This document shows, one piece after another, positions 1 through 21,657 of a stretch of DNA of 64,000 nucleotides (the first letter of the stretch is position 1; every line of letters begins with the position of its first letter). The notes under the pieces were generated by a model. It was not told where the DNA came from and searched no databases. It saw only the letters and a list, made by a program, of their open reading frames with translations. The translations under genes and the position numbers were made by a program. Origin of the DNA: a virus; IMG/VR virus record IMGVR_UViG_3300031965_000001, positions 7,267 through 71,266 of that record, one strand, 5' to 3'.

Positions 1-351
1 GTAAAAATTAAAATCACAAACTTCCCCGTCCTGCTCACAAAGAAGTTTTAAGTCATAATATGACCAAACAGCCTCCGCGCCACGCCAGAGAGGAATCCAC
101 GACTTTATATCAGGAGTTTTTGTGCTCCTAACTGCGTATTGGACAATGGCGTATTTTTTACCTTGTTCTTTCAACCTTTCGATTAAATCCGTCATTCTTT
201 CCAATCTACCGATGATATTCACGATAACAAGATCTGCGTCGTCTATGTTATTCACTATCTCCACTGAACTGGGGGCGTGTTTTTCTAAGGCGTTAATCAC
301 CCTTGTCATTCCCCTGTCTCCTTTTTTGTGGGTTCTGGTGAAAACCCTCAT
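1..351 (-). CDS. Putative glycosyltransferase, N-terminal part (runs off window edge; absent from ORF track)
   Basis: Hand translation from ATG 351 is open to base 1: MRVFTRTHKKGDRGMTRVINALEKHAP...DADLVIVNIIG...AVWSYYDLKLLCEQDGEVCDFNFY. ATGA overlap with the GT2 stop. GT call rests on remembered resemblance and context. Confidence 0.5.
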   Translation of the reverse strand, partial: MRVFTRTHKKGDRGMTRVINALEKHAPSSVEIVNNIDDADLVIVNIIGRLERMTDLIERLKEQGKKYAIVQYAVRSTKTPDIKSWIPLWRGAEAVWSYYDLKLLCEQDGEVCDFNFY

Positions 352-6986: not shown

Positions 6987-7814
6987 ATGGTATTTGTGTC
7001 GGCTCCTAAAAAGAGAAAGGGCGAAGACGACTACTACAAGGTAGTAATTATTAGCGACCCCCATGCACAATTCTTAGACCAAAAAGCATTTAATCTATTC
7101 TTACAAATTTATACAGAAAATAAATTTGACCTTCTCGTTTGCAACGGTGACTTCATGGATTTCCCAACACTCTCGTCTTTCGCTAAGAGAATTGAGACCT
7201 TTAACCCATATATCATTAAAGAATATAGCCTTGGAGAAGAAATTGATTTCGTCGAAAAAAATATATTAGACCCCCTTCATAACGCACAAAAAAATACACC
7301 AAAATTATTCAGGATAGGAAATCACGAAAAGCGCTTCCTCCGACCAGTCAGAGACAACGCCACTGCCCTGTCTGAAATCCTCGAAGAGTGCAGAAAAAGA
7401 GGATCAACAAAACTAGAAGAATTACTACACTTTGACAAATATAACACAAAAATCAGCTACCGACATACCGATATTCTTAGGGGAAAATTTGCACTAATCC
7501 ACGGTACACACCTTGGACAAAATAGATGCGAAAAATACCTCAGAGAATTTATGATGTCTGGTACGAGCGGACATTCACATCAGGGTCTCCGAGGAGAAAA
7601 AACAATATACGGGAAACAGGGAATAGAATGGGTAGAGAGCTTTTGTCTGAGAACAATAAAAAATATCGAATATATGGAAGAGGGGATGATACCAAATTGG
7701 TCACACGGATTCGTAACGGTATGGTTCAAAAAGGGAAGCGACCGTATGCACATCAAACAACATAAATTCAATGGGTACGAGTGTGAGTTCCACGGAAAGG
7801 TTTACCGCTCTTGA
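6987..7814 (+). CDS. Calcineurin-like metallophosphoesterase
   Basis: SDPH, NGDFMD, GNHE, IHG, GHSH motifs; start placed at ATG 6987. Confidence 0.85.
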   Translation: MVFVSAPKKRKGEDDYYKVVIISDPHAQFLDQKAFNLFLQIYTENKFDLLVCNGDFMDFPTLSSFAKRIETFNPYIIKEYSLGEEIDFVEKNILDPLHNAQKNTPKLFRIGNHEKRFLRPVRDNATALSEILEECRKRGSTKLEELLHFDKYNTKISYRHTDILRGKFALIHGTHLGQNRCEKYLREFMMSGTSGHSHQGLRGEKTIYGKQGIEWVESFCLRTIKNIEYMEEGMIPNWSHGFVTVWFKKGSDRMHIKQHKFNGYECEFHGKVYRS

Positions 7815-12597: not shown

Positions 12598-12702
12598 TCG
12601 TATCATTTTGATACGATTTGACAGAATAGCCCTAAAGGTGGATAGGGGGTCTTTGTTCTAAAATTGGTTGAATGGTGGAAAGATTTATATTATGGTGGGG
12701 GT

Positions 12703-13294
12703 ATGAGACCTGTGAACAGATTAAACATAGAGAATGGACAAAAGTTCAATAAGTGGACAGTTATTAGGGAAGAAGATCCAGTCATATATAGCAACGGAAA
12801 AAGAAAAAGACTTTTCCTATGTAGGTGTGAATGTGGGAAAGAGAATGTTGTACGCCTTGATAATATTAAAAATGGTAGGTCTCTATGCTGCATGAACTGC
12901 AAAAATGTTTTTCGAGCACACAGTATGTCTAAAACCGAAGAACATAATATATGGATGGGGATACAGAACAGATGCTATAACTCCAAGGGGAAACCACATA
13001 AAAATTACGGAGGAAGGGGTATATCAATGTGTGAATCATGGAAAAATGATTTTATGGAATTCTATAACGACATGGGGCCAAGACCGTCAAAAAAACATTC
13101 TATTGATAGAATTGATAATAATGGGAATTATTGCAAAGAAAATTGTAGGTGGGCAACGCAGGAGGAACAAAATAGTAATACTAGACAAAATTTCTATATA
13201 ACACACAACGGAGAAACTAAAACATTGGCTCAGTGGGAAAGGAAAACTGGTATATCCAAAACAGCAATAAAATACCGTATAAATTTTAAAAAAA
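12703..13294 (+). pseudogene. HNH endonuclease, 5' part, interrupted by the IS1595 element
   Basis: GQKFNKWTV, CRCECG, YGGRGI, SIDRIDNNGNYCKENCRWAT; frame continues at 16749 once the insertion is removed. Confidence 0.88.
13287..13294 (+). repeat. 8-bp target site duplication, left copy
   Basis: TAAAAAAA, identical to 16741-16748. Confidence 0.9.
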
Positions 13295-13395
13295 GGCGAC
13301 TATCCCTTGGAAGCTAGGACACTATGATTTACTCTCTTACTGTGACAGGCGGACTATGGCAGTAGACCCTTTCATTATTGGCTTCTGGCTCGGCG

Positions 13396-13743
13396 CTATT
13401 TTTTCTTTCTTTTTGACTTCGGTAGCTTCAGCACTGGTGTATCTCCGTCTTCGGCATTACCCAAATCATTAGCCGATAGTTCCATCGGTTCAGAAGTGCC
13501 ACTTTCTTTTGAGTATCCTTTTGAGTGTTGTAGTTTTGCAATCTCTTCACGTTGCTGTTCAATTTGACTATATTGACCTTGGATTTGTTGTCCTTGGTAT
13601 TCATGCTCCCTTACAAATCTCCCCACTCTATAGCTCCCGTAACAAATAGCAGGAATGACTACGACAAGAAATCCCCAGTTGCCCACAATACATTGCCACG
13701 CAAAACTTGCTATTTGTTCTACGTCTGGCGGGACATTGCTCAT
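13396..13743 (-). CDS. IS cargo: membrane-anchored hypothetical protein
   Basis: One TM helix then a Gln-rich coil. Confidence 0.6.
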   Translation of the reverse strand: MSNVPPDVEQIASFAWQCIVGNWGFLVVVIPAICYGSYRVGRFVREHEYQGQQIQGQYSQIEQQREEIAKLQHSKGYSKESGTSEPMELSANDLGNAEDGDTPVLKLPKSKRKKK

Positions 13744-14003
13744 TTCTTCTTTGGCAGTGAAACTTTAAGTTCGCCATATTTCTTTTCGTATTCCTCTATT
13801 TTTTCCTGTAAACGAAGCATTAACTTCTTAGCATGTTTTGGAGTAAATACGTACTGTCCATCAACAACAGAGCCTGTCTGTAATGCCAATATAAAGTGTT
13901 CTTCGTTAAACAAGACAAATGCCCTGTCACAAAAATAGCGACGCGGATCGCCAATTTCTACTTTTACTGTTTCTTCGTCATTCTGCTTTGTGGGTTTTGC
14001 CAT
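13740..14003 (-). CDS. IS cargo: DUF3467-like small protein
   Basis: RYFCDRAFVLFNEEHFILAL...FTPKHAKKLMLRLQEKIEEYEKKYG pattern. Confidence 0.55.
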   Translation of the reverse strand: MAKPTKQNDEETVKVEIGDPRRYFCDRAFVLFNEEHFILALQTGSVVDGQYVFTPKHAKKLMLRLQEKIEEYEKKYGELKVSLPKKK

Positions 14004-14043
14004 AGTGAAATGGGGAAAGAAACTAGACGATAGTATCAGTCTG

Positions 14044-14697
14044 TTATCTTTTGCTCCACCTATCTTTTACTTTTTTGAAGTATTCAATTCTGCTATCAAT
14101 CTTTACGATTTCTCTCGGATAAAAAGAGAGCATTACATCACACAGTTCAATCATCCAATCCTTTCTACTGTAATGTGAGTTAACAAGAATCTTGTTGGAG
14201 TTGGCAATCTGAATTTGCCCCCACCCCAATGCACCTACAGTAAGACATTCCCAAGATAAAAATTCGATAGGAACAAAATGAACCTTATCCACTTCAATAT
14301 GATTTTCATTCGCTGAGTATGCAACCATCAATATCACAAAGTAGTTTTTATCATCTTCATAGAATCTTGCCAGCCTCTCAACGGATGTTAAGTTTGGCAT
14401 ATTAAAGTGTGTATCCATTCTATGTGTTTTAATATCAACAACATGGTAGCATGAATTCTTGTCTGTGAATGCAACATCAGCCATTGCTCTTCGTGCAAAG
14501 TCAGAAGAGTATTCGGAAATATATTTGCCAAGAATTTTATCAAAATTGTCCTCCAAAACGCTTTGTATTGCATCACCTACTGCACGAGGGCTTGATATTG
14601 TTCTGGCTGATAAAAAGTCCTCTTCTGCGTTCAGAAAATCCTTTATCTTTTTTTGGATAGAAACATACTTATCTGTGCTGAATATAATGCTGCTCAT
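14044..14697 (-). CDS. IS cargo: type II restriction endonuclease, PD-(D/E)XK
   Basis: ADVAF...VDIKT catalytic pattern; PNLTSVERLA and QIQI recall HincII-type enzymes; TAATG overlap with the MTase stop. Confidence 0.7.
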   Translation of the reverse strand: MSSIIFSTDKYVSIQKKIKDFLNAEEDFLSARTISSPRAVGDAIQSVLEDNFDKILGKYISEYSSDFARRAMADVAFTDKNSCYHVVDIKTHRMDTHFNMPNLTSVERLARFYEDDKNYFVILMVAYSANENHIEVDKVHFVPIEFLSWECLTVGALGWGQIQIANSNKILVNSHYSRKDWMIELCDVMLSFYPREIVKIDSRIEYFKKVKDRWSKR

Positions 14698-15692
14698 TAC
14701 GAAACCAGAGAAAATAAGTCTGCTTCCTGTTGTACCCTATTTGGCTTGCCTTTCTTCTGGTCTGCAAGCGAATTCCTTTCCCAAAATACTCCATCACAAT
14801 ATCCCTGAATAGAGTTATCACCTTCTGCCATTTCTAGCCTTCTTTCAGTCAAACATGCGTAAAGTTTGTCGCTTTCCACTCCACAATATCTCCTTCCTAA
14901 CTTCTTAGCTACAACCGATGTTGTACCAGAGCCAAGAAACGGATCAAAGATCATATCACCCTCTTTGGAGCTTGCCAGTATTATTTTAGCAATGAGCTTT
15001 TCAGGTTTTTGTGTTGGATGATCTGTATTTTCTGGCATTGACCAGAAGGGAATGGAAATATCAGTCCAGAGATTGGAAGGTGATGTCAGACGGTAATTCC
15101 CATTTTCTTCTGATTGCCAGTCCTTAGCCTCTCCATTTTCATTTTTATATGGAGCTATCACTTTCTTTTTCAATTTAACTTCTTCCACATCGAAGAAAAA
15201 ATCATCACCTAACGTTCCGTACCAAATATCCTCAGAGCAGTTTTTCCAGTTAGTTTTTGCCCCACGACCTTTTTCTCTTTCCCATGTAATTCTATTTCGT
15301 ATGGTAAAATACTTCGACATTACGCGTTCTACTGCACTAGATGATTTCCAGTCGCAACAGACATATACGGAAGCAGTAGGCTTGAGTATTCTTGTAAGTT
15401 CAGATAGCCATGAATCTACATATTGTTTGTAATCATTATCCTGCATCTTCTTAAAAGAATTGGAATTAAACGTCTTATTTAAGTTGTACGGCGGATCAAT
15501 CACCAACAAATCAACGAAATTATCTGGTAAGCAATGTACTGCTTCAAAAAAGTCCTGATTTATCGTTTTACCATACAAGTAATCAGGTGTCACCCTTTCC
15601 TTTAATTCTATTAGATTGTGTGACAGTCTTTTCATTTCCTGTTCATCTAGCGTAATAGTTTTATTGCGTTCTGCACGAATTTTGTTTTCCAT
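14697..15692 (-). CDS. IS cargo: beta-class N6-adenine/N4-cytosine DNA methyltransferase
   Basis: DPPY precedes HPTQKP and FDPFLGSGTT. Confidence 0.93.
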   Translation of the reverse strand: MENKIRAERNKTITLDEQEMKRLSHNLIELKERVTPDYLYGKTINQDFFEAVHCLPDNFVDLLVIDPPYNLNKTFNSNSFKKMQDNDYKQYVDSWLSELTRILKPTASVYVCCDWKSSSAVERVMSKYFTIRNRITWEREKGRGAKTNWKNCSEDIWYGTLGDDFFFDVEEVKLKKKVIAPYKNENGEAKDWQSEENGNYRLTSPSNLWTDISIPFWSMPENTDHPTQKPEKLIAKIILASSKEGDMIFDPFLGSGTTSVVAKKLGRRYCGVESDKLYACLTERRLEMAEGDNSIQGYCDGVFWERNSLADQKKGKPNRVQQEADLFSLVS

Positions 15693-15764
15693 AAAACGAA
15701 GGGGTAATTGACCTCATACTAGCGACATTTATTTCTAGTAGCAAAAAATGCTATAATCCCCTAC

Positions 15765-15929
15765 ATGCCAGACCATTCCACTGACCAGAACAGCTTCTTT
15801 AGGCTCCTCAACCTTGCCGCTACGACACGCGTGAAAGGAGAAGATCGAAAAGATGGTTTCCACTCTTCCGATGATTGTAACGCCACTGAAATTCAGAAAC
15901 ATAAGCGTGGAGCATCTTCGGAGAAATAA
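15765..15929 (+). CDS. Putative 54-aa leaderless ORF convergent on and overlapping the transposase 3' end
   Basis: TGC-TATAAT at 15749-15757, 7 nt to ATG; MPDHSTDQNSFFRLLNLAATTR... Confidence 0.4.
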   Translation: MPDHSTDQNSFFRLLNLAATTRVKGEDRKDGFHSSDDCNATEIQKHKRGASSEK

Positions 15930-16677
15930 CGTGATGCGTACCGTCTAGGCTGCGTTTTAGTTGGCTCCAAAAGCCTTCAATGGTGTTTGTATGCGTTCCA
16001 TTCTCTTTGGCGTACTGCTTAGCTCCATGCTGTACCGTGTCATGCTCCATTTCCAGTAGTGTTGCGATTTTCTTGTAGGTCTTGAGTTCATCGGTCATAA
16101 CTTTCGTACCCTTGGCGATATTGTTTTGGAAGTGTGGAAGCAAGGTTGACGCTCTTACGTTCTCTACAACGGAAGCGTTCATTTTGCCCTTTCTCTGTAC
16201 GGCTCCAAACACAATCGTTTTTCCTTCTGCTCCACGCCCACGTTTACCTTTTCGCTTACCACCTACAGCCGTTTCATCGGCTTCTACTTCCCCGAAAAGC
16301 ATTGTGGCATTCTCCTTCATTAGCTTCCGTACTTGATGCCCGATTCTATAGGCGCATTTGTAGGTAACGTCCAAAGCCCTCTCCAGTTCCTTCGCTGATA
16401 CACCATTGCGAGATTGAGAGAAAAGAAAGATGGCAAAAAACCACTTCACAAGGTCTGTAGAAGAATGGTCAAAGATCGTTCCCTCCTTCGGGAAGATGTG
16501 AGAGCAGCCGTTCTTACAGGTGTAGCAAGCCCGTGTAGGGTGCTTGTAGAACTTTGTCTCCCCGCATTTCGCACACTTTGGTTCGGGGAAGCGTGCGTTG
16601 AAGAGATATGCCAGACAGGTGTTGTTATCGGGGAATCTCTTGTGGAAGTTGAGAACAGAGAGGCGTTGTGCTTTCAT
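15820..16677 (-). CDS. IS1595-family DDE transposase
   Basis: Zn ribbon CAKC...CKNGC, VEADET, MTDE, TNTIEGFWSQLKR, EFQWRYN. Confidence 0.95.
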   Translation of the reverse strand: MKAQRLSVLNFHKRFPDNNTCLAYLFNARFPEPKCAKCGETKFYKHPTRACYTCKNGCSHIFPKEGTIFDHSSTDLVKWFFAIFLFSQSRNGVSAKELERALDVTYKCAYRIGHQVRKLMKENATMLFGEVEADETAVGGKRKGKRGRGAEGKTIVFGAVQRKGKMNASVVENVRASTLLPHFQNNIAKGTKVMTDELKTYKKIATLLEMEHDTVQHGAKQYAKENGTHTNTIEGFWSQLKRSLDGTHHVISPKMLHAYVSEFQWRYNHRKSGNHLFDLLLSRVS

Positions 16678-16740
16678 AGGTGAGTAGGAATGTACCTATA
16701 GTCTAGCTTTTACCTTCCTAGTCGTCAAGGGATAATCACC

Positions 16741-16748
16741 TAAAAAAA
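16741..16748 (+). repeat. 8-bp target site duplication, right copy
   Basis: TAAAAAAA. Confidence 0.9.
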
Positions 16749-16966
16749 TGTCAGCAGAGGACGCACTATCAACACCTACTGACAAAATTAAATATGATAA
16801 TGCAAAAAAGATAAGATATAATGGACAAACAAAAACTATATCAGAATGGTCTATGGAAACTGGTCTCCCCTGCTATCTTATTTACAAAAGAATAGAAAGT
16901 GGATGGGACACTGAAAAAGTTCTAACAACAAAACACAAAAAATACAAAAAAAGAGGGAGATGTTAA
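16749..16966 (+). pseudogene. HNH endonuclease, 3' part (DNA-binding repeat)
   Basis: Joined read AIKYRINFKK-MSAEDALSTP; YNGQTKTISEW repeats HNGETKTLAQW of the 5' part. Confidence 0.85.
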
Positions 16967-17796: not shown

Positions 17797-18376
17797 CAAC
17801 GACAGCCAGCTCCTCTCTTGTAACAAAATCAGTGGGTCTAAATAGCCCATCTTCGCCCCCCTTCATTATCCCCTTTTCTTTGCAATAGCGAACGGCTTCC
17901 TCGCTCCATCTTCCTATCTCTACGTCTGGGAATACTGGGATCGGTATGGGAATAGATGTATCTAGTTTAATGTTGGAAAAAGGTCGATATTGGTTGATTC
18001 TATAGGTATTTTTTACCAATTTCGCTGGAAAAACGAGCGGGTCAATCATTTGCTTCGTATCGTTGTTATAGCAAAAGAAATGTGTTTCATAGCCTTGATC
18101 TGCATAATCTCTTGTTCTCGCGATACACCACCCATCTGGAGGAGTATTGGTAGCCCCCAATGCCCTACCCCCGCAATATTTTGCTATTGTATCTGAAAAT
18201 ATAAGACCAGCATCATTAAATGCTCCATTCACTACCAATAATTCTGTAGGATGTTTCTGATAAAGATTCGCTAAGGAAACGAGAAAACAGCCAAATCCAG
18301 AAACCCGAAGATTGCTTCTGCCAAGGCTAGCATTTTGATAGCTAGGGTCGCGCTGCGAATGCAAAAAGGTTGTCAT
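17771..18376 (-). CDS. Peptidase C39-like domain plus C-terminal SLH domain (endolysin candidate)
   Basis: HSQRDP...GCFLVSLA...THF; SLH FPDV...WSEEAV...GIMKG...FRPTDFVTREE; promoter TTGCCC-17-TATAAT-7-ATG. Confidence 0.72.
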   Translation of the reverse strand: MTTFLHSQRDPSYQNASLGRSNLRVSGFGCFLVSLANLYQKHPTELLVVNGAFNDAGLIFSDTIAKYCGGRALGATNTPPDGWCIARTRDYADQGYETHFFCYNNDTKQMIDPLVFPAKLVKNTYRINQYRPFSNIKLDTSIPIPIPVFPDVEIGRWSEEAVRYCKEKGIMKGGEDGLFRPTDFVTREELAVVVSRLPRLP

Positions 18377-18416
18377 TGTTTATATTATAGAGGGTCTTTT
18401 TTGTTGGGGCAAGGCA

Positions 18417-18445
18417 TTGACAACAATCTATTTTCTGATTAGAAT
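18417..18445 (+). promoter_or_regulatory. Promoter of the HNH gene
   Basis: TTGACA-17-TAGAAT, 5 nt before the conserved leader. Confidence 0.75.
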
Positions 18446-18450
18446 TAAAT

Positions 18451-18525
18451 AGATGCTGACAAGGGCATTTCTTAGAAGATTACTTTCCGTGCACTGCTTG
18501 TCCATTGCACGGAGAATAGTCTTTT
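18451..18525 (+). ncRNA. Structured 5' leader, copy 1 (two hairpins with complementary loops)
   Basis: Differs from 20562-20637 at only 3 positions, all outside stems. Confidence 0.65.
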
Positions 18526-19140
18526 ATGGGCAAAGTTAAAGATATTACTGGACAGAAATTTGGAAAACTTACTGTCATTAAAAGACATGGAAATGATAAT
18601 TTTGGGCAAGCAACATGGGGTTGCCTTTGTGAATGCGGAAAGAAAAAAGTAGTAACAGGATATGATCTCAGGGGTGGACGCTCAAAGAGCTGCGGATGCC
18701 TACAAAGATCTGGAACACATGGTAAATCCAAAACACGACTATACAGAACTTGGGTCTCGATGAAGACCAGGTGCCTTGACGAAAACCACAACAGCTATGC
18801 TTCCTACGGGGGTAGAGGAATTAAAGTTTGCGAATATTGGCTTAACCCAAAAAATTTTATGGATTGGGCATTAAAAAATGGTTACGATATGGCGCTGCAG
18901 CTAGATCGTATAGACAATAATGGAAATTATTGCCCTGAAAATTGCAGATATGTAACATCGAAGAAGAATAATCAAAATAGATCTAATAATGTTACATATA
19001 TGGGAGAATGTGCGTCAGAAGCTAGCAGAAGATTGGGCGGAAAAAGAAATCTTGTTTCTAGCAGAATTCAATATGGAATGTCAATTGAAAAAGCATTTAC
19101 AACTCCACTAATGAGGAAACAAGTATCCAAATGCTCATAA
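18526..19140 (+). CDS. Free-standing HNH homing endonuclease
   Basis: DITGQKFGKLTV, CLCECG, YGGRGIKVC, LDRIDNNGNYCPENCRYV. Confidence 0.88.
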   Translation: MGKVKDITGQKFGKLTVIKRHGNDNFGQATWGCLCECGKKKVVTGYDLRGGRSKSCGCLQRSGTHGKSKTRLYRTWVSMKTRCLDENHNSYASYGGRGIKVCEYWLNPKNFMDWALKNGYDMALQLDRIDNNGNYCPENCRYVTSKKNNQNRSNNVTYMGECASEASRRLGGKRNLVSSRIQYGMSIEKAFTTPLMRKQVSKCS

Positions 19141-20478
19141 AGATGAGCCATCCCTCCTATCAAGGACACCATTAAAAATAGGCTCCCAGGATTCTCGAAA
19201 AATTTTATCCCACGTATACTGCTGCGCCCATTCGTATCCCCTTTCAACCTGCTTAAATGTTTCTGTACCCTCTTTGGGATGTGGCAATCTATTCCCCCCT
19301 TCGTCGGTACAGTCTATAAACACCCTCTTCATCTGTCTCGCCAGAGACACCGGATCTGTTACAGGACGAGGCGGATCTGAAAATTGTGAGGATCTGTCCA
19401 TAAATCTCCAGTTCCAATAACCATTCGGACCATTCCCAGATACACAGAATTTTCCTCTCTCTGCATCGCCTTTATTGCCATATTCTTCGCCAAGGATTTC
19501 TATGCTGGCTGTATTTCTTGGCATGATCACTGGGGTTTTTGTGGCTAAGGATTCACTCAATTGAAATCCCCAGCCCTCGCCCCTGTTGCTACTTACAGAG
19601 CAATCCGCAGCATTATAAAACATATTTATCTCTTCAGTCGTGAATCCATTTGGCGGGATGGACGGGAAAATAATGTGGTCTGCAACATCCTTCATGTGCT
19701 CATCCCTAATATAAATAAGGTTCTCTCCTGGTCCAGAAATAGGGTGCATGTGGAGAAGTAATTTGGGCTTTGGGGTATTAAACTCCTGCTTCTTCCACCA
19801 TCCCATAAAAATCTGGAAAGCGAACATCGTTTGGGGTATATCCTTCCTGACCTGATTCTTATTGAGGTTCATAAATAATGCCTGATTTCCATAGAGATGA
19901 AGCTCCTCTTTTCTAAAAACTTCCACCCCCTCCTCTGGAAGCGGCTTAAAAATATCTACGTTTGTCCCATGATATGCGATGGTAACCCTCTCTAGTTCTC
20001 TTTCTGGGATATGTTTTTTTAGCTGTTCCATACCAAAATTTGTATAGACAACAGGTTGGTCAAAAGACATCGCAGTTTTACACCATGTCTCAGGAATGTC
20101 AGAAGCATCCACTGGGAAATAAAAAATGCTTTTGAAATTCGCTCCCATAGCCCTTTTTCTAGCGAGTGCTGTAGATATTTCTTGCATCTGGAAACTATCT
20201 TCAATTGAGAAAAACACATCAAAATCTGTATTCATTATATATTTACATAATGCTTTTTTATTTAACTGCTTATCTCTTTCGTCTCTATCTGGGCTTCCTT
20301 CTAGCCTAGAATCAATAATTGTAAAGCGTTCGTCAGATTCTCCTGTGTGATTTATCGCCCAGATAGTAATATCACATTTATATGTCTTGTGCACAAGACC
20401 GAGGATTTCATTAGCCACACGCCCGAAGCCTGATGGGGCTAGGGGGCTATCACAAAATACGAGGATCTTCTTTTTCAT
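19135..20478 (-). CDS. GT-B glycosyltransferase (GT4-like)
   Basis: DSPLAPSGFGRV, YHGTN, LNKNQVRKD, YNAADCSVSSNRGEGWGFQLSESLA. Confidence 0.85.
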   Translation of the reverse strand: MKKKILVFCDSPLAPSGFGRVANEILGLVHKTYKCDITIWAINHTGESDERFTIIDSRLEGSPDRDERDKQLNKKALCKYIMNTDFDVFFSIEDSFQMQEISTALARKRAMGANFKSIFYFPVDASDIPETWCKTAMSFDQPVVYTNFGMEQLKKHIPERELERVTIAYHGTNVDIFKPLPEEGVEVFRKEELHLYGNQALFMNLNKNQVRKDIPQTMFAFQIFMGWWKKQEFNTPKPKLLLHMHPISGPGENLIYIRDEHMKDVADHIIFPSIPPNGFTTEEINMFYNAADCSVSSNRGEGWGFQLSESLATKTPVIMPRNTASIEILGEEYGNKGDAERGKFCVSGNGPNGYWNWRFMDRSSQFSDPPRPVTDPVSLARQMKRVFIDCTDEGGNRLPHPKEGTETFKQVERGYEWAQQYTWDKIFRESWEPIFNGVLDRRDGSSL

Positions 20479-20527
20479 GGAGGAATCTTAATCTTATTTT
20501 ATTTTTAATACAATAGAAAATATTAAT

Positions 20528-20556
20528 TTGACACAGAAATATTATTTAATTAAAAT
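20528..20556 (+). promoter_or_regulatory. Promoter of the HNH gene
   Basis: TTGACA-17-TAAAAT, 5 nt before the conserved leader. Confidence 0.75.
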
Positions 20557-20561
20557 TAGAT

Positions 20562-20637
20562 AGATGCTGACAAGGGCATTTTATAGAAGATTACTTTCCG
20601 TGCACTGCTTGTCCATTGCACGGAGAATAGTCTTCTT
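20562..20637 (+). ncRNA. Structured 5' leader, copy 2
   Basis: Near-identical to 18451-18525. Confidence 0.65.
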
Positions 20638-21264
20638 ATGAGCAAGGTTATTTACATGAAAGGGGAGAAATTTGGAAGACTAACAGTGGTCAGAAGGGCA
20701 AAAAATGCTAACAATAGAAAGGCTATGTGGGAATGTACCTGTGAATGTGGTAAAAAAACAATAGTAATCGGTTACCAACTTAGATCAGGACGAACGAAAA
20801 GCTGTGGATGCCTTAGAATAGAAACAACTAGCAATAATATGAAGAGGCACGGGATGATAAATAGTAGTCTATATTGTGTCTGGGCTAGCATGAAGTCCAG
20901 ATGCCTTAACCCAAATACTAGGTGTTATCATAGATATGGAGGAAGGGGGATAAAAATTTGCAAAGAATGGATAGAATTTCTACCGTTCTATAATTGGGCT
21001 ACTGAAAATGGATTTGAAGACGGTCTTAAACTTGATCGAATAAATAACGACAGGGATTATGAACCGAAAAATTGCAGGTTTGTCACTCATGCAGAAAATA
21101 TGAGAAACATGAATTGTAATGTAAAATACAAAGGCGAATGCGCTTCAGAGGCATCAAGAAGGTTAGGGGGAAATCCAAGCCTTGTATCATGTAGAATTTT
21201 CCAAGGAATGTCTGTAGAGGAGGCATTCACCACTCCATTAAGAAAAAAGGGACAGGTCTCGTAA
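20638..21264 (+). CDS. Free-standing HNH homing endonuclease
   Basis: GEKFGRLTV, CTCECG, YGGRGIKIC, LDRINNDRDYEPKNCRFV. Confidence 0.88.
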   Translation: MSKVIYMKGEKFGRLTVVRRAKNANNRKAMWECTCECGKKTIVIGYQLRSGRTKSCGCLRIETTSNNMKRHGMINSSLYCVWASMKSRCLNPNTRCYHRYGGRGIKICKEWIEFLPFYNWATENGFEDGLKLDRINNDRDYEPKNCRFVTHAENMRNMNCNVKYKGECASEASRRLGGNPSLVSCRIFQGMSVEEAFTTPLRKKGQVS

Positions 21265-21282
21265 CCCATCCCTTATATTTTC

Positions 21283-21657
21283 CTACTGACCGATTTCCTT
21301 AGATTTTTCGTCTTTGACATCGGGAGCCGTAACGGTAACTTCTCCTTTGGGTTGGTTTACCGTCTGATTTGAAACAGAAGTTCTGGAAGCCAATAATCTC
21401 GCACTGTCCTGAGCGATTGGATACAAACCAGTCACGGTTCCACCAAGCACAATTCCTTGGTAGATGACATTTGACATAGCCGCTTCTCCGAGGGATGTGA
21501 CTCCGACTCCGATGAGAACGGCGACGATGGGCATAATGACATCTCTGTTGTCAGTAGAAAAAAACCTGTTGATTAATTTTCCAACGACAGCGGTAAGACC
21601 GACGATGACACCTGCCTGTAAAGCTAGACCTGTTAGTGAAATGCTATCTAAGTCCAT
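21283..21657 (-). CDS. Holin-like membrane protein
   Basis: Three TM segments, IMPIVAVLIG, GIVLGGTVTGLY, hydrophilic tail. Confidence 0.6.
   Translation of the reverse strand: MDLDSISLTGLALQAGVIVGLTAVVGKLINRFFSTDNRDVIMPIVAVLIGVGVTSLGEAAMSNVIYQGIVLGGTVTGLYPIAQDSARLLASRTSVSNQTVNQPKGEVTVTAPDVKDEKSKEIGQ

Follow-up and report, generated by a model that had tools for sequence, protein, structure and literature searches.

An element of ~80 bases, promoter-proximal in position, is nearly identical in two old, diverged nuclease cassettes of an uncultured soil phage (IMG/VR record IMGVR_UViG_3300031965_000001, positions 7,267 to 71,266; this 64,000-nt stretch is the window analysed here, and all coordinates refer to it). 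We hold with moderate confidence that the element is best read as a selected promoter/mini-ORF/hairpin module that throttles translation of the HNH-like genes. The two copies (18451–18531 and 20562–20643, + strand) differ on alignment by three substitutions and one inserted base, share an exact direct repeat of 51 nt on the + strand (18473–18523, identical to 20584–20634) and are the only two in the 105.9-kb record. An initial annotation of this DNA had counted three differing positions between 18451–18525 and 20562–20637, and these are indeed 18471 (C/T), 18472 (T/A) and an extra C after 20634; a fourth, 18530 (G/A), falls in codon 2 of HNH1, just beyond the range considered there. In the source sequencing run, the 51-nt repeat forms a separate 51-nt unitig at a depth of 26.8 against 12.2 for its flanks (~2x), and a search of sequencing runs found the stretch only in the probable source soil metagenome, a DNA run.

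HNH-like gene 1 (18526–19140, + strand; P0001, 204 aa) and HNH-like gene 2 (20638–21264, + strand; P0002, 208 aa) both match PHROG 374 'HNH endonuclease' (E values 3e-69 and 1.5e-65, respectively), and the N-terminus of P0001 aligns with its homologues. P0001 comprises a zinc-ribbon/SH3-like N-terminal domain, an HNH-like middle domain and a helical C-terminal domain. Residues 63–155 of its structural model (pLDDT 86) resemble PacI at a modest score (Z 6.5, rmsd 3.2 over 79 residues), while the model of the whole protein returned no Foldseek matches in the PDB and neither HNH-like protein has a Pfam match. The core residues invariant in the family are D-R-I-D ... N-C ... N, in which an Arg takes the place of the His found in many HNH enzymes. 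Sequence and fold place P0001 and P0002 among the HNH (beta-beta-alpha-metal) endonucleases, with putative activity.

The two proteins had been described as clearly diverged, and we find them 54 % identical (BLASTP), with silent sites randomised (pS 0.85, saturated; 14 of 47 fourfold sites match, 30 %). In the tree, they are sisters on long branches (support 81/87). Both genes are accessory inserts on the opposite strand, and the genes upstream of the leaders are divergent. Between the repeats lies a putative glycosyltransferase gene (19135–20478, − strand; weak Pfam GT1 match, PHROG 2170) that is divergent from cassette 2 and looks leaderless, its −10 box ending 6 nt before the ATG. A third paralogue (12704–13287, + strand; 39 % identity by own-genome protein search), interrupted by an IS1595 element, has no such leader: the covariance model introduced below finds no match there, and a −10-like box of its own seems to lie immediately before the gene start.

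Identity between the cassettes is 93–100 % in the leader, ~60 % in the coding sequences and ~35 % in the flanks. The similarity extends to both promoter hexamers, whereas the promoter spacer matches at only 9/17 positions. A tract bounded approximately by the transcription start and the HNH ATG, with the hexamers kept and the spacer drifted like the coding sequence, is more in keeping with selection acting on the transcribed segment than with a random conversion tract. The fairly unlikely alternative is recombination or gene conversion of the kind associated with promoter-early stem-loop (PeSL) cassettes, in which the segment was recently copied or is kept uniform by exchange, and amounts to a generic promoter/5′ region with a 51-bp homology patch able to shuffle or delete the genes between. 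Such exchange would fit 51 nt of perfect identity beside saturated coding divergence, the absence of double compensatory changes and the accessory, opposite-strand character of both inserts. PeSL cassettes number ~50 per genome in T4-type phages, mostly in plastic regions, where a stem-loop around the promoter terminates upstream transcription and the cassettes end in a Shine–Dalgarno (SD) site; these repeated promoter-plus-stem-loop units mediate shuffling and mini-circles (PMC2839356, PMC4122927). Like them, the present element pairs a repeated strong sigma-70-like promoter (11/12) with a stem-loop directly upstream of accessory genes, and direct-repeat modules of either kind can delete or shuffle what lies between. 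Unlike them, it occurs in two copies rather than dozens, its promoter spacer is unconserved, and its stem-loop lies inside the transcript with divergent genes upstream, so nothing would be terminated. Conversion is further disfavoured by a tract whose ends fall at the transcription start and at the HNH ATG, and by bordering sequence that, at only ~60 % identity, is a poor substrate. Deletion from repeat to repeat, as the initial annotation suggested for HNH1 and the glycosyltransferase gene, is possible; no deletion joint between the 51-bp repeats was present in the source-run contigs, which is weak evidence since contigs drop rare variants. We infer that selection, not conversion, keeps the two copies alike.

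A promoter scan detected TTGACA, a 17-nt spacer and TAGAAT in cassette 1 (18417–18445, + strand) and TTGACA, a 17-nt spacer and TAAAAT in cassette 2 (20528–20556, + strand), each matching 11/12 of the sigma-70 consensus. On the + strand, the same scan showed no further promoter-like site within the hairpin or beyond it (18446–18571, and from 20557 to the gene). As annotated initially, the −10 box ends 5 nt before each repeat copy begins. In both leaders, an ATG lies 7 nt behind the −10 box, which is the spacing of a wider set of genes in this phage: genome-wide, 17 genes have their start codon 6–7 nt after TTGnnn-16..18-TAnnnT against 0.66 expected. Leaderless starts are used by this phage. 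SD-like motifs are rare in its genome (8/138 genes), and a GGAG at 11-nt spacing was consequently judged improbable as an SD site and rejected as the main signal. Most likely, transcription starts at, or 1–2 nt before, the 5′-proximal AUG.

That AUG opens a mini-ORF in each copy. Mini-ORF 1 (18453–18539, + strand) has 28 codons in a frame different from that of HNH1 and ends with a TAA 11 nt past the HNH1 ATG; mini-ORF 2 (20564–20641, + strand) has 25 codons, and its TGA overlaps the HNH2 ATG as ATGA. Both span the whole of the hairpin termed P2 below. They were overlooked in the initial annotation, and the mini-ORF and the leaderless-start rule are new observations on this locus. By our own chance estimates, an ATG 6–7 nt behind a promoter would arise in ~4–9 % of cases and 25 open codons in ~20 %. 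The peptide had no tblastn matches outside the two copies, which show no synonymous differences and a single internal change, the non-conservative Leu to Tyr; coding selection by itself therefore cannot explain the identity. We infer both that the mini-ORF is translated and that HNH translation is coupled to it.

Folding of the leader predicted two hairpins, P1 and P2, in each copy. The P1 proposed in the initial annotation was reproduced: in copy 1 (18452–18469, + strand), it has 6 bp and a GACAAG hexaloop (18458–18463) and contains the 5′-proximal AUG. P2 (18470–18529, + strand) is longer than the 17 bp assigned to it, with ~25 bp made up of 10 lower, 10 upper and 2 apical pairs plus 2–5 basal pairs, interrupted by C.A and C.U mismatches. 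Its apex is a CUUGUC hexaloop (18497–18502) closed by U-A and G-C. Copy 2 (20563–20641, + strand) folds alike into P1 at 20563–20580 (loop 20569–20574) and P2 at 20581–20641 (loop 20608–20613). The predicted energies are −32.4 kcal/mol for copy 1 and −33.9 kcal/mol for copy 2 (z −5.05 and −4.86), and none of 200 shuffled sequences folded as well as the native leader. In copy 1, P1 alone contributes −5.9 kcal/mol and the upper part of P2 −15.8 kcal/mol, to which the lower part adds −10.7 kcal/mol.

The HNH start codon is buried by the predicted P2. The AUG had been placed 3–4 nt beyond this stem; in our folds, the basal pairs of P2 take it in, including the AUGA of copy 2. Paired probability over positions −16 to +3 of the HNH starts is 0.86–0.87 against a genome mean of 0.52 (sd 0.16), and both HNH upstream regions belong to the three most stable in a set of 138 genes. 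Nor do the differences between the copies all lie outside stems, as had been claimed: three affect pairs predicted at the base of P2, each with pairing preserved (C-G to U-G, G-U to G-C, U-G to U-A). The best explanation for the near-identity of the copies is that pairing, mini-ORF codons, loops and start-codon context jointly constrain the same bases.

In the module that we favour, each HNH-like gene would be a free-standing cassette on the opposite strand, consisting of a strong sigma-70-type promoter, a 5′ region of ~75 nt and the ORF. The transcript would begin at or just before the AUG within P1, which would open the mini-ORF of 25–28 codons; this would cross P2 and end, in copy 2, on the HNH AUG itself and, in copy 1, 11 nt beyond it. 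Because P2 would pair the HNH AUG and its surroundings, free ribosomes would be barred from starting there, and synthesis of the nuclease would require a ribosome that, having read the mini-ORF, melts P2 and re-initiates. Opening of P2's weak lower half in a minor fraction of molecules would permit it as well. Either way, little of a potentially harmful nuclease would be made, and its expression would be gated. A point against the module is that P1 pairs the AUG of the mini-ORF too (probability 0.85, compared with a mean of 0.34 in the 17 leaderless genes), so leaderless initiation would be hampered. A leader far more conserved than neutral sites, structured and with the start codon buried fits a role in limiting nuclease translation. 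The initial annotation had proposed such a role, and conservation, fold and AUG occlusion are in keeping with it, although the mini-ORF was missed.

Hairpins that sequester the ribosome-binding site (RBS) are known from homing endonuclease genes of the T4 family (I-TevI, I-TevII, I-TevIII, segB and mobE); there, only read-through transcripts form the hairpin, whereas those from a late promoter within or behind it have an open RBS (PMC2988022). The present leader likewise places a very stable predicted hairpin right where translation of a phage endonuclease begins, an arrangement thought to lower or delay synthesis. It differs in promoter layout: the entire hairpin is downstream of the cassette's sole promoter, and the scan for an internal one was negative. 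It also differs in a genome that makes no use of SD sites, in predicted pairing that takes in the AUG itself and in a 5′ mini-ORF that runs across the hairpin, and the two systems are unrelated in sequence. In mycobacteria, leaderless short ORFs serve as first cistrons and attenuators (PMC4633059; bioRxiv 10.1101/834739). The candidate AUG at the start of the transcript and a short first cistron ending at or near the HNH gene start are reminiscent of these, whereas here the element belongs to a phage, translation is putative, and the mini-ORF lacks a tell-tale codon run, overlaps the downstream start and is embedded in a 25-bp hairpin. In ermC/cat leader-peptide control and pyrBI-type attenuators, ribosomes translating a short ORF upstream refold a hairpin, which either conceals the downstream start or acts as a terminator. 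The leaders described here differ from both: neither a stalling motif nor an alternative anti-hairpin can be recognised, and the mini-ORF extends over both hairpin arms.

A pyrBI-type arrangement could nevertheless act on transcription: the upper part of P2 and the U-rich run behind it (UCUUUUAU in copy 1, UCUUCUUAU in copy 2) would terminate most transcripts unless a ribosome on the mini-ORF, following the polymerase closely, prevented the hairpin and so let transcription proceed into the HNH gene. We regard this ribosome-coupled attenuator as improbable. The mini-ORF traverses the entire hairpin and the U-rich stretch follows an upper stem of 14–15 bp, as it would demand; however, the terminator scan did not call the element an intrinsic terminator, the pairs adjoining the U-run are weak A-U and G-U with a mismatch, and the run itself pairs with the upstream A-rich arm and is interrupted by a C in copy 2.

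The complementarity of GACAAG to CUUGUC, pointed out in the initial annotation, is exact in both copies, and the P1 and P2 loops are 100 % conserved between them. For two given hexaloops, we put the chance of this at ~2e-4 with Watson–Crick pairs only and ~3e-3 with G-U pairs allowed, by our own post hoc arithmetic. The annotation took the leader to be a kissing-loop RNA. As an untranslated riboregulator, it would have its loops pair either within one molecule, the lower P2 being open, or between mRNAs and so set the accessibility of the HNH AUG, leaving the mini-ORF coincidental. The perfect match of two invariant loops speaks for such a contact, as does an estimated −5.6 to −7.8 kcal/mol for the 6-bp loop duplex against −10.7 to −12.2 kcal/mol for the lower P2, which puts the two states within a few kcal/mol of each other. 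Judging by helix lengths, however, a fully formed P2 of ~25 bp whose foot abuts P1 would be geometrically incompatible with an intramolecular kiss: its loop would sit ~70 Angstrom from the P1 anchor, so the lower P2 would have to melt, and the contact could not coexist with full P2. The closed state is favoured by 3–6 kcal/mol, and loops that are invariant between the two copies give no covariation signal. We judge a purely untranslated kissing switch quite improbable.

A combined form, which we regard as speculative and rather doubtful, is a three-part RNA switch in which the leaderless mini-ORF and a kiss of the P1 loop with the apical loop of P2 both compete with the lower P2, and ribosome traffic on the mini-ORF or dimerisation of nuclease mRNAs opens the start codon. 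If true, such a switch would not have been described before, and the identity of the bases would follow from codons, pairs and loop contacts imposed on the same nucleotides. The pseudoknot between hairpin loops also raised the question of a Pistol-like or other ribozyme, which was rejected: Rfam gave no match of this kind, and the pairing partner is an apical rather than an internal loop.

At the level of DNA, the P2 palindrome (TTTCCGTGCA, 13 nt, TGCACGGAGAA) might be an operator bound by a repressor, possibly the conserved helical C-terminal domain of the HNH proteins themselves. I-TevI is a transcriptional autorepressor (PMC2988022), and similar autorepression here would draw on a perfect, 100 % conserved inverted repeat of 10–11 bp and on a 13-residue C-terminal motif that is identical in P0001 and P0002. 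Yet the site, at +33 to +66, does not overlap the promoter, its half-site is found nowhere else in the genome, and conservation reaches well past the palindrome into P1 and the lower stem; we consider an operator very improbable.

A search of the whole window against Rfam 15, the Infernal-type check proposed with the initial annotation, returned no matches at gathering thresholds. A permissive search of 18350–20750 gave chance-level matches only (E values 0.47–7.8, 12–18 bits), among them GlsR14, uup and IsrM, which we dismissed. Against a covariance model (R1) built from the two copies, copy 2 scores 109.9 bits. In the viral and prokaryote genome collections, R1 found no matches ahead of 159 homologous genes; nine loci of the closest subfamily gave none either, and exact and purine/pyrimidine-degenerate P2 patterns found none in viral and metagenome collections. 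The P1 18-mer had four viral matches, all in unrelated coding DNA lacking P2, and these were set aside as chance. BLASTn against 50,697 phage records gave chance matches of 19–35 nt only, and no relatives of the phage were found via the neighbouring glycosyltransferase. AUG-occluding hairpins precede the gene in 3 % of 138 homologue loci, equal to the genome background, and are thus not general in the family. Homologous genes at two loci (L007 and L175) are preceded by long hairpins abutting the start codon, with unrelated sequences, and at L007 a −10-like box lies within the hairpin loop, unlike in either cassette. Coupling to an ORF upstream is frequent among close members of the subfamily. 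These loci are analogues that favour the module. A new cis-regulatory RNA, as had been proposed, is putative: the leader is strongly structured and its fold occludes the AUG, and no homologue or covariation was found in Rfam, at 168 homologue loci or in the viral and metagenome collections. With no homologue in any collection searched, the structure and the mini-ORF stand as predictions; with only two nearly identical copies, compensatory double changes are absent, and one pair from one uncultured soil phage does not yet permit generalisation.

The locus is a clean natural case in which sequence that looks non-coding has hardly changed, whereas the paralogous genes beside it have diverged to 54 % identity. 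Selfish nuclease genes need enough expression to spread and not so much as to harm their phage. The T4 hairpin combined with a late promoter is the only well-studied solution, and this locus suggests another, in which a mini-ORF at the start of the transcript would gate a start codon buried in a hairpin. The suggested setting is a host that makes no use of Shine–Dalgarno sites and translates leaderless mRNAs, and the locus could serve as a ready-made reporter construct for leaderless initiation, re-initiation and loop–loop contacts.

The two HNH genes, HNH1 (18526–19140, +) and HNH2 (20638–21264, +), are preceded by leaders (18451–18531 and 20562–20643, respectively) carrying a direct repeat present in exactly two copies, with no third in the whole 105,910-bp IMG/VR record. 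The initial annotation placed this repeat at 18451–18525 and 20562–20637, starting 5 nt after a -10 box; the repeat is genuine and the distance holds for both copies. The aligned leaders differ by three substitutions (18471 C/T, 18472 T/A and 18530 G/A) and a single additional C after 20634 in copy 2, and share an identical 51-nt block (18473–18523 = 20584–20634). Among sequence data, only the probable source soil metagenome contains the stretch; in its assembly, contigs are interrupted at the 51-nt repeat, and the repeat unitig has a depth of 26.8 vs 12.2 for its flanks (~2×), which fits two copies. No deletion joint between the repeats was found in these contigs. The promoters (TTGACA-17-TAGAAT, 18417–18445, +, for copy 1; TTGACA-17-TAAAAT, +, for copy 2) are the best two sigma-70 matches (11/12 each) of the surrounding 9 kb.

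Both HNH genes are lone + strand genes amid - strand genes, divergent from the gene on their left (for HNH1, an SLH-domain gene with its start at 18376 (-); for HNH2, a glycosyltransferase gene with its start at 20478 (-)) and convergent with the gene on their right. Free-standing nuclease cassettes have this layout. The SLH gene and HNH1 promoters lie back to back (18412–18384 (-) and 18417–18445 (+)), 4 nt separating the -35 boxes, and the divergent glycosyltransferase/HNH2 promoters are similarly arranged. Inside the 3′ end of HNH2 lies a 12-bp terminator-like hairpin (21247–21274, -) of the - strand gene 21283–21657, which could halt both convergent transcripts. The HNH1 and HNH2 products, P0001 and P0002, match PHROGs family 374 'HNH endonuclease' (E values 3e-69 and 1.5e-65) and returned no match in Pfam or NCBIfam; the family is without a Pfam model despite >6,500 relatives. 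An AlphaFold model of the HNH-like protein (pLDDT 86.4) gave no match with Foldseek; VIA-align found its residues 63–155 to be similar to PacI, a restriction enzyme of the HNH type (Z 6.5). The family core, DRID...NC...N, is invariant in P0001, P0002 and the family alignment, and is preceded by a zinc-ribbon/SH3-like domain (CxC...CGC). As this core carries an Arg where many HNH enzymes carry His, nuclease activity of these proteins is not assured. An IS1595 element (~13287–16748) divides a third, more distant paralog (~12704–13287; 12664–13317 plus 16748–16966; 39 % identity to P0001), which lacks a hairpin leader and seems to begin immediately after its own -10-like box.

As the initial annotation had stated, the HNH proteins are clearly diverged: P0001 (204 aa) and P0002 (208 aa) share 54 % identity, synonymous sites are saturated (pS 0.85) and fourfold sites in identical residues match at only an approximately random level (14/47). 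A tree with 32 homologs groups them as sisters with support of 81/87 and branch lengths of 0.56 and 0.96 changes per site, and searches of 5.8 billion proteins with either returned none >52 % identical except the paralog. The sliding identity profile is 93–100 % in the leader, ~60 % in coding DNA and ~35 % in the flanks. Judging from the coding divergence, the genes were duplicated long ago, and the similarity of the leaders cannot simply date from that event; the leader is either under selection or recently homogenised. Promoter-plus-stem-loop modules that are repeated and shuffle accessory genes, the promoter-early stem-loop (PeSL) cassettes of T4-type phages (PMC2839356, PMC4122927), are the closest known recombination analogue, and a recent conversion or PeSL-like patch is a minority possibility. 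However, the highly identical tract is bounded by the HNH ATG and the position where transcription is predicted to start, and the promoter hexamers are kept between copies while their 17-nt spacer is identical at only 9 positions. Selection on functional elements produces such a pattern, whereas a copied block with the promoter included would not leave it. A DNA operator seems to us very improbable.

Each leader is predicted to fold into two hairpins (-32.4 and -33.9 kcal/mol; z = -5.05 and -4.86; 0/200 shuffles as stable). P1, the small 5′ hairpin, has 6 bp and a GACAAG hexaloop. P2 comprises ten A/U-rich pairs in its lower part, ten G/C-rich pairs in its upper part and two apical pairs closing a CUUGUC hexaloop, and at its base two to five further pairs, in which the HNH AUG takes part. 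Three differences between the copies, which the initial annotation had put outside the stems, sit in the predicted basal pairs of P2, and all three preserve pairing (C-G to U-G, G-U to G-C and U-G to U-A), weakly supporting P2 (roughly 0.04–0.1 by estimate).

The hexaloops are exactly complementary, as originally claimed, which is unlikely to be by chance. However, P1 is anchored at the P2 foot without a linker and the P2 loop is ~25 bp (~70 Å) away, so that contact in one molecule would require an open lower P2. Nearest-neighbour energies favour lower P2 (-10.7 and -12.2 kcal/mol) over the 6-bp loop duplex (-5.6 to -7.8), so the closed form should dominate, and only a minority of molecules would adopt the kissed form, in which the HNH AUG is exposed. 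Alternatively, the loops could pair between two molecules. We consider the original proposal, an untranslated kissing-loop leader, improbable.

Leaderless gene architecture is statistically clear across the record. Among 138 crude ORFs, 17 have a promoter (TTGnnn-16..18-TAnnnT) whose end is precisely 6 or 7 nt upstream of the start codon, vs an expectation of 0.66 based on 3,998 control ATGs, with no enrichment at other spacings; examples start at 18376(-), 20478(-), 25350(-), 48338(-) and 68586(+). SD-like motifs lie upstream of only 8/138 genes, both HNH genes included. This scarcity and the leaderless spacing point to a host that translates both leaderless and non-SD mRNAs.

In each leader, an ATG (at 18453 in copy 1 and 20564 in copy 2) follows the -10 box by exactly 7 nt, the spacing of the neighbouring leaderless gene at 18376. 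In copy 1, this ATG opens 28 codons, with a TAA (18537–18539) 11 nt beyond the HNH1 ATG; in copy 2, it opens 25 codons, whose TGA overlaps the HNH2 ATG as ATGA. Frames relative to HNH differ between copies because of the one-base insertion, which excludes a frameshift fusion. By the genome's leaderless rule, the transcript should start with the mini-ORF AUG and be translated. Since the mini-ORF spans both P2 arms, a translating ribosome would melt P2 and, on terminating, arrive at the otherwise buried HNH AUG. We estimate that chance alone would place an ATG at such spacing in ~4–9 % of promoters and would leave 25 codons open in ~20 % of cases, the two copies being dependent evidence. There are no synonymous differences between the mini-ORFs, the sole internal change being Leu to Tyr, and no relative of the peptide was detected. 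The mini-ORF AUG is paired in P1 with probability 0.85; for the start codons of the 17 leaderless genes, the value is 0.34 (sd 0.28). In mycobacteria, short leaderless ORFs have been described that serve as first cistrons and as attenuators (PMC4633059; bioRxiv 10.1101/834739); a transcription attenuator of the coupling type is an unlikely reading here.

Rfam returned no match to the leader. A covariance model built from both copies retrieves them at 105–110 bits and found no match in 80 viral and 79 prokaryote homolog-encoding loci or in nine loci of the closest subfamily; neither did exact and transition-tolerant P2 patterns in viral or metagenome collections, and phage GenBank records gave chance matches only. 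Four P1 18-mer matches were rejected as unrelated coding DNA. A new RNA family is, accordingly, not demonstrated. This outcome, no homologs or covariation, was to have indicated a recent duplication only, which does not follow because the HNH genes are anciently diverged.

Start-region occlusion >0.8 occurs in 3 % of 138 homolog loci, equal to this genome's background. Two loci embody the same idea with start-abutting hairpins unrelated in sequence. At a homologous HNH-like gene in L007 (1254–1312; IMGVR_UViG_3300026549_000592), a -34 kcal/mol hairpin buries AGGAG, extends to the ATG and holds a TGnTATACT-like -10 box in its loop. RBS-sequestering hairpins are known in T4 for I-TevI, I-TevII, I-TevIII, segB and mobE, and I-TevI is autorepressed (PMC2988022); L007 has the classical T4-type design of I-TevI and mobE, here outside the T4 group. 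In L175 (944–1003; ENA ERZ28573518 scaffold_50320), which belongs to the closest subfamily, an 18-bp hairpin without mismatches (z -4.5) ends at the ATG. It overlaps an alternative GCGCGAAC/GTTCGCGC pairing that cannot form at the same time, and it may therefore be a switch. Further close relatives lie 2–28 nt downstream of an upstream ORF or overlap one.

All readings draw on one copy pair in one uncultured phage. The reading that we favour, with roughly even confidence, is a selected module of promoter, leaderless mini-ORF and hairpin, which would keep HNH translation low and make it depend on the passage of ribosomes upstream.
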